A DNA stretch of 52,703 nucleotides from a virus (Duplodnaviria; Caudoviricetes), in IMG/VR virus record IMGVR_UViG_3300031857_000265, positions 1 through 52,703 of that record, one strand, 5' to 3'. The translations under genes were made by a program, and so were the position numbers. The notes under the pieces were generated by a model that did not search any database, had not been told where the DNA came from, and saw nothing but the letters and a program-made list of their open reading frames with translations. Below are positions 7,471-11,649 of this stretch, piece after piece; positions within the stretch are counted from its first letter, which is position 1; each line of letters starts with the position of its first letter.

Positions 7471-7794
7471 TCAGATAATGCCGAGTTCCTCGGCCTTGCT
7501 CTTCGGCATGTATGCCCCCGCCTTGGCGACGAGGACGCGGGTCTTCGTCATGGAGGAAAGGGCCACCTCCCGGTAGACGTCCCTCTCGACGCGGACCATC
7601 TGCTCCTCCGCGGTCTTCTCCGCCAAGGGGGCAAACTGTACACGGATGCTGGGCGGTGGAGGGGCGTCGGGTGAATGGCTCACGCAGTCGCCCGTCGGGT
7701 GGCCGCAGATGATGCACGGCTGCCTGTCGGCCCTCAGTATCGAGACGCCGTCAAGGATCGTTTCCGATGATCCGGAGCCGCTGGAGGAGAACAT
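7471..7794 (-). CDS. Hypothetical protein with CxxC-H-C motif
   Basis: CIICGHPTGDC; ATG at 7794 lies 7 nt below a TAAGTT -10 box, so it is preferred over the track start at 7887. Confidence 0.65.
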   Translation of the reverse strand: MFSSSGSGSSETILDGVSILRADRQPCIICGHPTGDCVSHSPDAPPPPSIRVQFAPLAEKTAEEQMVRVERDVYREVALSSMTKTRVLVAKAGAYMPKSKAEELGII

Positions 7795-7892
7795 GACACC
7801 GAACTTACCGCGGTCGCTCGCGCCATCGGAAACCGAAAAGTGGTAGTGTTCGCGACCGCTTTCGCGGCGGTGAATCATTGACGCCAAACGGC

Positions 7893-7920
7893 TTGCGAAC
7901 CTCCGCCCGGGTGCTATTGT
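7893..7920 (+). promoter_or_regulatory. Putative promoter of the methyltransferase operon
   Basis: TTGCGA-16 nt-TATTGT with TGn extension; SD GAGGT before ATG 7959. Confidence 0.55.
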
Positions 7921-7958
7921 CGGGGGGAGCAGTACCTACCTAACCACTGAGAGGTGAC

Positions 7959-9284
7959 ATGAACAGACCCAAGGTTCTTTCGCTCTTCAGCGGCGCCGGC
8001 GGACTAGATCTCGGGCTTGAGCGGGCCGGGATGGAAGTCGTCGCGCTGTGCGAGATCGACCCCAAGGCGAAGATGGTGCTGCGCAAGCACTGGCCACACA
8101 CCCACATCTATGACGACGTAAGAGAGGTAACCCGTGAACGACTCATCGCAGACGGCATCGCCCGCCCAGACATTGTGGCAGGAGGAAGTCCCTGTCAGGA
8201 CCTCTCCGTTGCCGGACGTCGTAAGGGACTTGATGGATCTCGCTCAGGGCTCTTCTGGGAGCAGTGCCGGATCTCCGACGAAATCGGGGCGGACATCCTC
8301 TGGGAGAACGTCCCCGGCGCCCTATCTAGTAACAACGGAGCCGACTTCGCTGCCGTGCTGTGGGGAATCACAGGAGCACTCGTCGAGCTGCCCCCTAAGC
8401 AGAAGTGGGCCAAGTCCGGCGTCCTGGTGGGACCAAAGCGGACAGCCATCTGGCGTGTTGCCGATGCCCAACGTTTCGGAGTTCCCCAACGACGGCGTCG
8501 TATCTACGTTGTCGGATGTTCTGGAACCGTGGCACGAGGGCTTGCGCCGCTACTGCTTGAGTGCGCGGGCGGCCAAGGGAATCATCAGGCGGGCCGAGAG
8601 GCGGGGACGAGAGCTCCCCGAACCGTTGCGGACGGCTCTGACGACTCTAGCGGCCCAGGAGCCGGACGAGGAATCACCGACGGAGGACTGACCGCCTGGG
8701 TCAAATCCAAGCGGGCATCGTCCAACACGGACGACGACACGTGGCGCGACCAGCCGGTCAGCCCGACCCTCAACGCGTTCGACAACTCCGGGGAATCGCG
8801 GGCGACCGTGCTCACCGTCCAGGAGGGGGTGCTCCCGTTCACCGAGAACAGGTTCGCCCAGTACGCCGAGGGAGTCGGGGCGTTGCGCGCCTCGGGAGGG
8901 ACGCTCGGCGGCGGGTCCGAGACATTGTTGATCGACAACGCAGGGGTTGCCGCCTGCCTGAGGAGCGGGGGCGACGGCGGTGTCCCATCCAGCAGGGGGG
9001 AGAACCTCGTCGTCCAGCAGGACCGGATCGCCGACACGATCGGCTTCTCGCACACCCAGGGTCTTGACCACCAAGCGTCGACCGAGGCCTTCCCGACGCT
9101 GAGGGCCGAGGGCGGCGGGCACGCCGTCATGTACGACACCAGGTCGACCGTCCTCTTCCAGCAGAACCAGCGGGACGAGGTCAGGATCATGCCGGGGTAC
9201 GCCGGCTCGCTCAACGCCGAGAACGGCATGCACAACACCAACTTTCTCGTGCAACCGCAAGAGGACGACGGTGCCGACATCTGA
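7959..9284 (+). CDS. C5-cytosine DNA methyltransferase, catalytic N-terminal part (motifs I-VIII) plus about 5 TRD-like modules
   Basis: LSLFSGAGGLDLG (I), CEID (II), DDVR (III), GGSPCQDLS (IV), WENVPG (VI), PQRRRRIYVVG (VIII); motifs IX/X are absent. Confidence 0.92.
   Translation: MNRPKVLSLFSGAGGLDLGLERAGMEVVALCEIDPKAKMVLRKHWPHTHIYDDVREVTRERLIADGIARPDIVAGGSPCQDLSVAGRRKGLDGSRSGLFWEQCRISDEIGADILWENVPGALSSNNGADFAAVLWGITGALVELPPKQKWAKSGVLVGPKRTAIWRVADAQRFGVPQRRRRIYVVGCSGTVARGLAPLLLECAGGQGNHQAGREAGTRAPRTVADGSDDSSGPGAGRGITDGGLTAWVKSKRASSNTDDDTWRDQPVSPTLNAFDNSGESRATVLTVQEGVLPFTENRFAQYAEGVGALRASGGTLGGGSETLLIDNAGVAACLRSGGDGGVPSSRGENLVVQQDRIADTIGFSHTQGLDHQASTEAFPTLRAEGGGHAVMYDTRSTVLFQQNQRDEVRIMPGYAGSLNAENGMHNTNFLVQPQEDDGADI
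8134..8691 (+). CDS. Nested alternative-frame methyltransferase subunit (M.EcoHK31I beta-like)
   Basis: 185 aa in the +1 frame inside the MTase gene; own SD (AGAGAGGT 8121-8128) before GTG 8134; C-terminal SEFPNDGVVSTLSDVLE..RYCLSARAAKGIIRRAERRGRELPEPLRTAL resembles alt-frame beta polypeptides (recalled, not searched). Confidence 0.75.
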   Translation: MNDSSQTASPAQTLWQEEVPVRTSPLPDVVRDLMDLAQGSSGSSAGSPTKSGRTSSGRTSPAPYLVTTEPTSLPCCGESQEHSSSCPLSRSGPSPASWWDQSGQPSGVLPMPNVSEFPNDGVVSTLSDVLEPWHEGLRRYCLSARAAKGIIRRAERRGRELPEPLRTALTTLAAQEPDEESPTED

Positions 9285-9891
9285 TGGGTACAACAACTGT
9301 TTCACACCGTGGCCGGACATGGGGCAGGCGATCCGCGTCTACGCAGACGACGGGCCTTCGCCGACCCTTTCCTCGCACCACGTACTCGTCCTGCATCGTG
9401 TGATCGTGGCCAGCGAAGAGAACGACCCGTCCCTCTTCAGGAGGCAGAACTTCGGTTCCTACGTGGAGAGCGAACACACACAGGCACTCCTCGCCCGCGA
9501 CTACAAGGAGGGGACCGACCTCGTCGTCCAGCCCGTTTGGTGGGACGGAGGGGAAACCGCCCCGACCCTGACCGCAAAGGGCTCCGACCAGAGGATGCCC
9601 GACAAGGGGCAGTTGTTCGCGGTGCTGCAGGCCGTGCCGATCCAGGACGGGCGGGAGATCGAGAAGAAGCAGAACGGCTTCGGCATAGGCGAGCCGGGCG
9701 ACCCGATGTACACGCTGGACACCACCGGCGCACAGGCGGTCGGTTACGTGCTGTGCTTCGACGGCAAGCGGAACGACGACTTCAGGATGTTCGAGGACTA
9801 CTACCCGACGCTGACGCAGATGATGGGTACGGGGGGCAACAATGTCCCCATGATCATCCACGACATCCCTGGCGACGGGGTGTCCCGATGA
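9271..9891 (+). CDS. Methyltransferase-associated protein made of about 5 TRD-like modules
   Basis: GAGGA SD then GTG overlapping the upstream stop; PSPTLSS, QALLARDYK, TAPTLTA, PMYTLDT, YPTLTQMMGTGGNNVP. Confidence 0.7.
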   Translation: MPTSDGYNNCFTPWPDMGQAIRVYADDGPSPTLSSHHVLVLHRVIVASEENDPSLFRRQNFGSYVESEHTQALLARDYKEGTDLVVQPVWWDGGETAPTLTAKGSDQRMPDKGQLFAVLQAVPIQDGREIEKKQNGFGIGEPGDPMYTLDTTGAQAVGYVLCFDGKRNDDFRMFEDYYPTLTQMMGTGGNNVPMIIHDIPGDGVSR

Positions 9892-10274
9892 CCAAATACG
9901 AAAGGGTGCCGCCAGAGGGCGATGACGACACGGTCGCCGCCCTGACGGTCTCCGACCTGGTGAAGGGACAGGGCAACAACCAGTCCATGATGTCCGGCTA
10001 CCTCCAGGTGTACGCACTCCCGCAGGCGTTCTCGGTCAGGGAGGATGCGAAGGCGAACAACTTCCACGCCACCCCGACGGACACCGCGCTGTGCGTGAAC
10101 GCCCTCAGGCCGTCACCGCAGTCGCACCACGCACAGATCTTCATCGTTCAGGCGGAAGTGCCGTGCCAAGTCGACGGCTCGCCCATCGCCTCCACGCTCA
10201 GGGGTTTCGGGCACGGCTGGCAGGGCCAGCACAACTCAACCAACGCAGTCGTACAGGATGCGGAGGAGGGGTGA
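9888..10274 (+). CDS. Methyltransferase-associated protein made of about 3 TRD-like modules (128 aa)
   Basis: ATGA overlap with the preceding stop; VAALTVSD..NNQS, ALCVNALRPSPQSHHAQ, IASTLRG. This is the C-terminal part of track ORF 9309..10274. Confidence 0.65.
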   Translation: MTKYERVPPEGDDDTVAALTVSDLVKGQGNNQSMMSGYLQVYALPQAFSVREDAKANNFHATPTDTALCVNALRPSPQSHHAQIFIVQAEVPCQVDGSPIASTLRGFGHGWQGQHNSTNAVVQDAEEG

Positions 10275-11443
10275 GCGACGTTTACGGCTACGACGAGTAC
10301 AACGACTCCATCGCCGAAGAACTACACCATTCCCTGAGGGCCGGCACGAGGCAGTCCGTCGGTGTCGTACACCCACTCCCGGATGGCGTCAAGTTATTCG
10401 AGCCGATGTCGATGCGCGAGGAGAACTGGGCCGAGAGCGAGGTCAAGAACGCCCTCAGGGCCGGTGCCTCGAAGTCGTCCCACGCCGTCGTCTGCGAGGC
10501 CGTGGAGTCGGAGGAGCCGCAGGCGATCGCCTTCACCACGGAGCAGACCCCCAAGTTCTCGCCCGACCTGGCGTTCACCCTCACGGGCGGTTCGCCGTCG
10601 GGCGGTGGCCAGCCACAGTCCGTCATGCAGCGCGTCCAGATGCTCAACTTCCAGGGGAGCAAGGGGAACACCGTCGTGTCGGACGACGGGCAGTCATTCA
10701 CCCTCAACGCTATGCACGGCCACGACGTCCACGTCATCGCCTACAACATCATGGGCGCACCGCCGAGGGAGCCAGACAGGCCCAACGGCGGCTACTACGT
10801 CAACGAGACGCAGGTGACCAAGACGCTCGACGCCTTCGGCGACGGTCTCAACCCGAGCGTCAACCAGGGCGGCCTCGCCATAGTGACCAGGTCGTGGCCT
10901 GTGTCTTTCAGGGGAAGGGACGGAGGAATGACCGCAGAACAGGGCGAGGAGGGGATCGCCAACACGATCAGGGCTGGGCAGGGCGGGAGCGTCCGCCCCC
11001 ATGTCCTGATCAGCGAAGGCCCCGTGGGCACGCTCACCACGGACATGGGTACGAAGATGCAGGTCAACAACCAGTCCGTCGACAGCAATCACCTCCAGGT
11101 CTTCGCGGAAATCGTGCAAGACCCGGCAGGAACGGGTACTATCGGCACGACGGCGGGGCTGCCCGCCATAGACATGATTGACAAAGAAGGGAATGACATG
11201 ACCGCAAACTCGAACGCACTGGTAGTGAGGCGCCTGACCCCGCTGGAATGTGAGTTGCTCATGGGATGGGAGCCGGGCTGGACCGAGGTCGGCATCACCG
11301 AGAAGGGCGAACTCGTCGAGATGGCCGACACGCATCGCTACAGGATGTGCGGCAACGGTGTCGTCTCCAATGTCGCCCACTGGATCGGGGCAAGGTATGT
11401 CGCGTCCAAGCAGGCCGCGGGTGAATCGGTCGGTTCGTGGTAG
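10271..11443 (+). CDS. C5 methyltransferase C-terminal part: about 7 TRD-like modules plus motifs IX-X (390 aa)
   Basis: GGAGGAGG SD and GTGA overlap; ends VVRRLTPLECELLMGWEPGWT (IX) and RYRMCGNGVVSNVAHWIG (X). Confidence 0.85.
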   Translation: MSDVYGYDEYNDSIAEELHHSLRAGTRQSVGVVHPLPDGVKLFEPMSMREENWAESEVKNALRAGASKSSHAVVCEAVESEEPQAIAFTTEQTPKFSPDLAFTLTGGSPSGGGQPQSVMQRVQMLNFQGSKGNTVVSDDGQSFTLNAMHGHDVHVIAYNIMGAPPREPDRPNGGYYVNETQVTKTLDAFGDGLNPSVNQGGLAIVTRSWPVSFRGRDGGMTAEQGEEGIANTIRAGQGGSVRPHVLISEGPVGTLTTDMGTKMQVNNQSVDSNHLQVFAEIVQDPAGTGTIGTTAGLPAIDMIDKEGNDMTANSNALVVRRLTPLECELLMGWEPGWTEVGITEKGELVEMADTHRYRMCGNGVVSNVAHWIGARYVASKQAAGESVGSW

Positions 11444-11649
11444 GCGAGGACGACATCGTCTCCCGGGCGGAGGCGAGGGTCAACCTGGTCCTGTGGGGAG
11501 ACCCGAAGGACTCCTTCTCGGCGAGGGAACTCCTGTTTGTCGTTGACCTACCCGCACTGATTGCGGAGGTGAAGAGGCTTCGCACGGCACTCGAGGAATC
11601 GTCTTCCGAGGTTGAGACCCTCAAGAGGTTCGCCTCTTACGGCGGTTAG
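11437..11649 (+). CDS. Small hypothetical protein with C-terminal coiled coil
   Basis: 70 aa, overlaps the MTase stop; DLPALIAEVKRLR is a common phage motif. Confidence 0.6.
   Translation: MVGEDDIVSRAEARVNLVLWGDPKDSFSARELLFVVDLPALIAEVKRLRTALEESSSEVETLKRFASYGG

Follow-up and report, generated by a model that had tools for sequence, protein, structure and literature searches.

Most characterized C5-methyltransferases act as monomers, and M.AquI and M.EcoHK31I are given as exceptions in the accessible part of PMC3404938. In M.EcoHK31I of E. coli (Lee, Kam and Shaw 1995, as cited in PMC2836561 and PMC3404938), the whole coding sequence of the beta chain lies in a different reading frame within the alpha gene, a point already made in an earlier note on the DNA considered here. 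Both chains are needed, beta can do without its first 42 amino acids (aa) in vitro, and translation can also begin at internal methionines (accessible part of PMC2836561). In the same parts of the two sources, the large chain is reported to be without motif IX, which is supplied by the small chain (PMC2836561, PMC3404938). The present analysis concerns a nested arrangement of this kind in a virus. The DNA, hereafter the window, is a 52.7-kb viral contig with 65% G+C (IMG/VR record IMGVR_UViG_3300031857_000265, 52,703 nucleotides (nt)), and the element in question is an open reading frame (ORF) at 8134-8691 that lies wholly inside, and on the same strand as, a C5-methyltransferase ORF at 7959-9284. 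The embedded ORF is a genuine same-strand overlapping gene under purifying selection. As an overall explanation, it is considered probable that its product serves as an accessory (beta-like) subunit of the methyltransferase; we infer that the small protein is separately initiated, binds the enzyme and affects methylation.

The window resembles M.EcoHK31I in that a small chain is encoded inside the large-chain gene, on the same strand and in another frame. The two differ in the source of motif IX, which is reported to be the small chain in M.EcoHK31I; here, motifs IX and X are in the enzyme frame. In addition, M.EcoHK31I is part of a restriction-modification system, whereas the window enzyme sits among phage capsid, portal, and ribonucleotide-reductase genes. 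M.AquI was compared by description: like the window enzyme, it comprises separate polypeptides and is split in the variable region between motifs VIII and IX (accessible part of PMC3404938). In some relatives, a chain that runs on into motifs IX-X starts with the conserved domain. The subunit genes of M.AquI are arranged in series and are not nested.

Streptococcus phage MM1 allowed a comparison at the level of sequence. Its 1998 record labels a C5-methyltransferase alpha subunit at 7480-8637 and an embedded beta subunit at 7631-8056 (orf13/orf14, GenBank DQ113772; annotation only), and the alpha chain carries motifs IX and X. As in the window, a +1-frame ORF extends from near motif IV to past motif VIII in an enzyme having motifs I-X. 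The family of the embedded ORF (alignment A2) matched MM1 orf14 with an hhalign probability of 99.1% (E 1.3e-18, 120 columns), and the window ORF matched it in BLASTP at E 3e-05. The homology so detected is partly imposed by the shared enzyme frame. The MM1 small ORF (141 aa) stops soon past the first part of the conserved domain and is without the last basic helix and the LP motif. The MM1 enzyme is one 385-aa chain, while that of the window is divided among four coupled ORFs. The link to M.EcoHK31I draws on architecture and on the MM1 annotation, not on sequence comparison.

The overlap and the host motifs that serve as its landmarks are as follows (plus strand in all cases).

7959-9284, plus strand: host gene, the first C5-methyltransferase ORF (441 aa), with motifs I-VIII followed by a long variable region
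7986-8003, plus strand: host motif I
8122-8128, plus strand: Shine-Dalgarno (SD)-like GAGAGGT, 5 nt before the embedded GTG
8134-8691, plus strand: embedded "beta-like" gene, with a GTG start, 185 codons, and a TGA stop, in the +1 frame (one base ahead) of the host ORF
8181-8207, plus strand: host motif IV
8301-8318, plus strand: host motif VI
8487-8516, plus strand: host motif VIII

The embedded ORF spans host motifs IV, VI, and VIII and continues for 50 codons past motif VIII. It had been described in the earlier note as a 185-aa ORF in the +1 frame with its own SD sequence and GTG over motifs IV-VIII, and its coordinates, start codon, and GAGAGGT were all confirmed. The same GAGAGGT is also located 3 nt before the host ATG; there was no enrichment of this motif in the window (15 found, 10.7 expected).

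Selection on the embedded frame

Seven viral contigs were found to encode an embedded protein that is 82-86% identical to that of the window. The frame is open and the GTG is kept in all seven, and AGAGAGGTAAC, upstream of the GTG, is invariant in the window and these relatives despite spanning three synonymous sites of the host frame. Substitutions were counted using the Nei-Gojobori method and pooled over eight pairs drawn from the window, L004, L006, L007, L009, and L010; L005 and L008 were excluded from the pairs because their translations were identical to those of L004 and L007. The proportions of differences at synonymous sites (pS) and at nonsynonymous sites (pN) were compared among the following parts of the embedded gene and with a non-overlapping stretch upstream, 7962-8133.

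8134-8289, plus strand: N-terminal part of the small protein, over host motif IV; embedded pN/pS 2.17, third frame 1.74
8290-8505, plus strand: doubly constrained stretch, over host motifs VI-VIII; embedded pN/pS 0.57
8503-8655, plus strand: conserved C-terminal domain (aa 124-174), over the host linker past motif VIII; 13 invariant columns in 77 sequences

Upstream of the overlap, the host frame has a pS of 0.649 and a pN/pS of 0.10. Host pS is 0.408 in 8134-8289 and 0.162 (four-fold lower than upstream) in 8290-8505; the nucleotide divergence in the latter stretch is 0.054, compared to 0.201 in 7962-8133, and positions 8392-8455 are identical across all eight sequences. A reduction of synonymous variation across the whole ORF, which had been put forward as a check in the earlier note, was seen in part: it coincides with selection on the embedded frame in 8290-8505 and not in 8134-8289, despite the lower host pS there. 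In 8506-8655, the embedded frame has a pS of 0.413 and a pN/pS of 0.11, while the pN/pS of the host frame is 2.35. From this contrast, it is the embedded frame on which selection acts past motif VIII; the enzyme frame there behaves as a permissive linker that has only to stay open. A plot of G+C at third codon positions (GC3) agrees in favouring the embedded frame past motif VIII.

Among the stretches of the embedded ORF, only 8290-8505 (motifs VI-VIII) looks doubly constrained. The earlier note had envisioned a fifth subunit of the enzyme with dual coding of catalytic DNA. A second selected polypeptide and a doubly constrained stretch were indeed found; the strongest selection lies over the linker and not over the catalytic motifs, and the subunit role is a prediction. 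The embedded pN/pS declines from 2.17 through 0.57 to 0.11 toward the C-terminus, and by this evolutionary proxy the small protein is like M.EcoHK31I beta, in which the N-terminal part is dispensable and the C-terminal part is the functional one.

An enzyme linker signature, "LFE" and "REAG" (alignment A3; window 8550-8606), shares bases with the most conserved residues of the embedded protein. Because selection there follows the embedded frame in the close relatives, this enzyme motif may be largely a shadow of the embedded gene.

The openness of the frame was assessed with synonymous shuffles of the host gene. In the window, a fixed 115-codon stretch of the embedded frame stays open in 39% of the shuffles, and the whole embedded ORF in 15%. 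The whole-ORF version is conditioned on the ORF being open, and the fixed-window version was therefore relied upon. The window contains 187 listed ORFs of at least 100 aa. The methyltransferase region is crossed in several frames by long ORFs that look spurious (8741-9067; 8550-9320 on the minus strand; many more), as expected at 65% G+C.

Homologues and pairing with the methyltransferase

The last 70 residues of the embedded protein match 1871 representative protein clusters at E<=1e-3, including 18 at <=1e-10. Full-length homologues of 160-214 aa cover 76-92% of the embedded ORF. A pattern scan of viral contigs yielded at least 582 confirmed relatives among 593 pattern matches, and the best 80 were kept. 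In all 80, a same-strand match to methyltransferase motifs I-VIII is overlapped, at motif VIII, by the domain in its +1 frame. Among 600 matches from the corresponding scan of bacterial genomes, 574 were relatives; of the best 80, 79 have the same +1-frame overlap with a methyltransferase. Across the loci examined, then, the embedded gene appears always to be paired with the methyltransferase (80/80 viral, 79/80 bacterial). Of the 80 distant loci, 66 encode a complete single-chain enzyme in which one ORF holds motif IX along with motifs I-VIII; in four more, as in the window, motif IX is in a downstream ORF.

The bacterial matches are headed by Acidobacteriaceae, followed by many other phyla. 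The closest cellular matches to the window domain (loci L093-L112, 53-63% identity) are nearly all from Acidobacteriaceae/Terriglobia (Granulicella, Silvibacterium, Edaphobacter, Terracidiphilus). By sequence similarity, these hint at the host lineage of the phage.

The fixed-window shuffle test covered 76 of 80 entries (79 loci and the window). The 115-codon +1 stretch is free of stops in 76/76 loci, where synonymous shuffles predict 10.1; the +2 frame is free of stops in 0/76. The frame is kept open in these loci, one of the two points on which the earlier note had proposed that its idea should stand or fall. The open stretch upstream of the domain in the viral loci has a median length of 104 codons in the +1 frame and 13 in the +2 frame. 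These medians are unchanged in the 17 loci with less than 50% G+C, and the +1 frame is open in loci with G+C as low as 43%. At 37 of 76 loci, the first start of the embedded ORF has an SD-like 4-mer ahead of it, compared to a background of 12%. The evidence that the gene exceeds chance is one of conservation: homologues of the C-terminal part, the substitution pattern in close relatives, and an arrangement that is repeated in distant loci.

When the 70-aa domain of the window was used as a tblastn query, no match was found in phages or plasmids; this proved to be a false negative of that query. With the homologous ORF of L066 as the query, 215 cultured-phage records matched, including phages of Mycobacterium (Omega and NihilNomen among them), Roseobacter, Caulobacter (DMCA among them), and Pseudomonas as well as Streptococcus phage MM1. 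Among the best 30 of these 215 records, a second gene is annotated at the locus only in three MM1 records. In Mycobacterium phage NihilNomen (L003, 2986-4103), the methyltransferase is annotated as genes 123 (motifs I-VIII) and 124 (IX-X). The match to the embedded ORF falls inside gene 123 (record 67787-68197) and is unannotated; this phage would be a candidate for laboratory work.

The N-terminal motifs shared by the family arise directly from reading enzyme motifs IV, VI, and VIII in the +1 frame. The C-terminal domain is the independently conserved part of the small protein. Two metagenomic proteins (P0052 and P0129) contain the domain, then a variable region, then motifs IX-X of PF00145 in one chain, and these fusions place the domain inside the usual order of the enzyme. 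Another three predicted proteins, namely P0016, P0165, and P0167, have a PF00145 N-terminus (motifs I-IV) in the enzyme frame and then pass into the embedded frame. Frame-switching was also observed at P0105, which belongs to the group having the domain, a variable region, and motifs IX-X, and at locus L047 (2752-3648). Possible origins of the frame-switching proteins are natural fusion, a split like that of M.AquI, and frameshift error.

Predicted structure and proposed role of the small protein

An AlphaFold prediction of the small protein was carried out with 78 sequences. The chain is mostly disordered, with helices at 135-140, 144-156, and 163-175; the predicted local distance difference test (pLDDT) is 94-96 over aa 141-170. 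The confident fold is confined to aa 135-175, and the part encoded by 8134-8289 is predicted to be disordered. The conserved domain is small, helical, and rich in arginine and lysine. It may correspond to the segment after motif VIII of monomeric C5-methyltransferases; no search supports this, and it is offered as a lead only. In the ESM Atlas, the only matches were to clusters of "hypothetical protein", mostly viral.

The complex was modelled on a compact relative, L011, using its enzyme (350 aa) and aa 45-173 of its embedded protein. The interaction prediction score from aligned errors (ipSAE) was 0.74 for this pair and 0.54 for the best control. In the calibration of the tool, 58 of 80 solved complexes and 2 of 110 mismatched pairs attained this mark, counts that hold only roughly here because custom alignments were used. 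The L011 runs share at least 40% of their contacts. The interface is formed by enzyme residues 161-171 (motif VIII) and 295-308 (motif IX) with residues 99-132 of the partner (the conserved segment). The model supports binding of the small protein beside motifs VIII and IX.

The following course of events is proposed. The small protein would most likely be translated from the methyltransferase messenger RNA via internal initiation at GTG 8134, served by the SD-like GAGAGGT, with internal ATGs at 8230 and 8464 as possible alternative starts. Its N-terminal ~120 residues are probably disordered, their sequence being largely dictated by the methyltransferase motifs in the other frame, and its C-terminal 50-60 residues would make up a conserved small helical domain. 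This domain may dock on the catalytic domain adjoining motifs VIII and IX. Once docked, it may complete or stabilise the hinge and DNA-binding region, as an accessory subunit like M.EcoHK31I beta. The accessory-subunit reading follows from the obligate pairing, the in-frame fusions, the precedents, and the complex prediction. Candidate contributions of the small protein are stability, DNA clamping, or target choice.

Several observations weigh against this reading. Motifs IX and X are both encoded in the enzyme frame; the small protein is therefore not the source of motif IX in this case, and the published rationale for M.EcoHK31I beta is not applicable. In the complex prediction, the margin over the controls (+0.20) equals the minimum allowed, and the pLDDT of the partner is just 54-57. 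The modelled pair are relatives of the window proteins (63% and 51% identity over the tblastn matches), and the passing score may stem from monomeric methyltransferase folds remembered by the predictor. The small protein has no match in Pfam (PF00145 included), PHROGs, or NCBIfam. Neither the domain by itself nor a 77-sequence profile had any match at E<=10 in sequence searches of the PDB, and Foldseek against the PDB returned nothing below E 2. As to the gene itself, 8134-8289 (the motif IV stretch) is without detectable selection on the embedded frame. The similarity of the N-terminal two-thirds is not independent evidence, as it is largely imposed by the methyltransferase motifs in the other frame, and the SD-like enrichment could partly mirror host-frame codons. 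Finally, the openness of the window's own frame is not significant alone.

A first alternative holds that the embedded gene is real and selected and that its product is not a subunit; it would be a regulator of expression or timing, or would have a separate overprinted function (e.g. nucleic-acid binding via the basic helix). An enzyme frame that is complete without the small protein (motifs I-X) and a small, helical, arginine/lysine-rich domain that is in no described family are compatible with such a product. Against it, the domain is found only overlapping motif VIII of this methyltransferase clade (80/80 and 79/80 loci), and in some proteins it is fused in frame to the variable region and motifs IX-X of the enzyme. 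The complex prediction also passes its controls, and beta is required for activity in the M.EcoHK31I precedent (accessible part of PMC2836561). This alternative is considered unlikely.

Under a second alternative, a +1 frameshift near motif VIII in some rounds of translation would yield a truncated isoform having motifs I-VIII and the conserved domain, with no separate small protein. The conserved domain begins exactly at motif VIII in every locus, embedded-frame selection is undetectable in 8134-8289, and the three predicted proteins mentioned above (P0016, P0165, and P0167) do run from the enzyme frame into the embedded frame, all as a frameshift would have it. A shift site would need far less open frame than the ~100 upstream codons that are kept open in 76/76 loci. 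Start codons with SD-like signals are enriched at the 5' end of the frame, and in close relatives the GTG and SD-like motif are invariant. By eye, no slippery sequence or in-frame stop was seen at the junction, although no systematic search was made. M.EcoHK31I beta, moreover, is made from its own start codons (accessible part of PMC2836561). The frameshift is regarded as improbable.

A chance open frame in G+C-rich DNA, with similarity that merely mirrors methyltransferase conservation in the other frame, would suit the 65% G+C of the window with its 187 ORFs, the 39% of shuffles that leave the frame open, and the +1 read-outs of motifs IV, VI, and VIII, but it is contradicted by 76/76 open loci where 10.1 were expected, by openness down to 43% G+C, and by substitutions in 8506-8655 that are synonymous in the embedded frame and replacements in the host (pN/pS 0.11 vs. 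2.35), and it is deemed highly implausible.

The four-ORF enzyme and the wider family

The enzyme of the window is split over four translationally coupled ORFs (7959-11443, in frames 0, +1, 0, and +2), the first of which is the host gene. The others, with the remaining motifs, are listed here.

9271-9891, plus strand: second cluster ORF, with a GTG start and a 14-nt overlap with the first ORF (9271-9284); GC3 frame plot; weak phrog_16528 match
9888-10274, plus strand: third cluster ORF, with an ATGA stop-start overlap (9888-9891)
10271-11443, plus strand: fourth cluster ORF, with a GTGA stop-start overlap (10271-10274) and motifs IX and X
11228-11269, plus strand: canonical motif IX, in ORF 10271-11443
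11351-11374, plus strand: canonical motif X, in ORF 10271-11443

All of the C5-methyltransferase motifs examined, namely I, IV (PCQ), VI (ENV), VIII (QxRxR), IX, and X, are present across the cluster. Motif IX lies outside the embedded ORF and in a different gene, as the earlier note had it. The host ORF has a PF00145 match over aa 5-187 (E 2.6e-36) and matches to phrog_116 and phrog_363 (DNA methyltransferase) in PHROGs. The fourth ORF matches phrog_16528 (DNA methyltransferase) at E 3.3e-20; the C-terminal match to PF00145, over aa 363-434 of the longer ORF 10091-11443, scored 18.1 bits, which is under the 22-bit cut-off. A Pfam search with the third ORF (9888-10274) gave no match, and a megablast search of 7900-11500 against cultured phages gave none either. 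The cluster is neighboured by a capsid gene, a B12-type ribonucleotide reductase, and a portal gene.

The spacing between motifs VIII and IX is ~900 residues in the window enzyme. By eye, many segments of the variable region resemble target-recognition modules; a BLASTP comparison among the four variable-region ORFs detected just one weak internal pair (E 7e-04), and a repeat array is not claimed. In the relative L010, additional modules are inserted.

The nested-subunit arrangement is known from two earlier cases, and it is far wider spread and less annotated than the accessible literature suggests. No paper on a wide spread of such embedded ORFs was found in the full-text literature, a search outside of which most subscription journals fell. 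Annotation pipelines discard overlapping genes of this type. To our knowledge, long same-strand overlapping genes with both frames selected are rare and are poorly documented in tailed phages.

A broader reading is possible and is held more tentatively than that of an accessory subunit in the window. The orphan C5-methyltransferases of phages and prophages may include a very large clade in which the embedded ORF encodes an obligatory second subunit that annotation nearly always misses; this clade would take in at least 1871 clusters (50% identity) and many hundreds of loci, viral and bacterial, in many phyla. The small protein would provide a hinge element in trans for activity or target choice, and the linker signature of the enzyme would be largely a shadow of the embedded gene. 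Were this so, the family would be among the largest of long same-strand overlapping genes in double-stranded DNA phages, and the small protein would perhaps be especially useful to multi-module enzymes such as the four-ORF one.

The locus is a natural case of sequence sharing: where one protein has its conserved domain, the other has a tolerant linker. Should methylation require the small protein, or take its specificity in part from it, activity predictions for a large class of phage anti-restriction methyltransferases would be incomplete. Clones of the annotated gene would happen to include the partner, and codon-optimised synthetic copies would silently destroy it.

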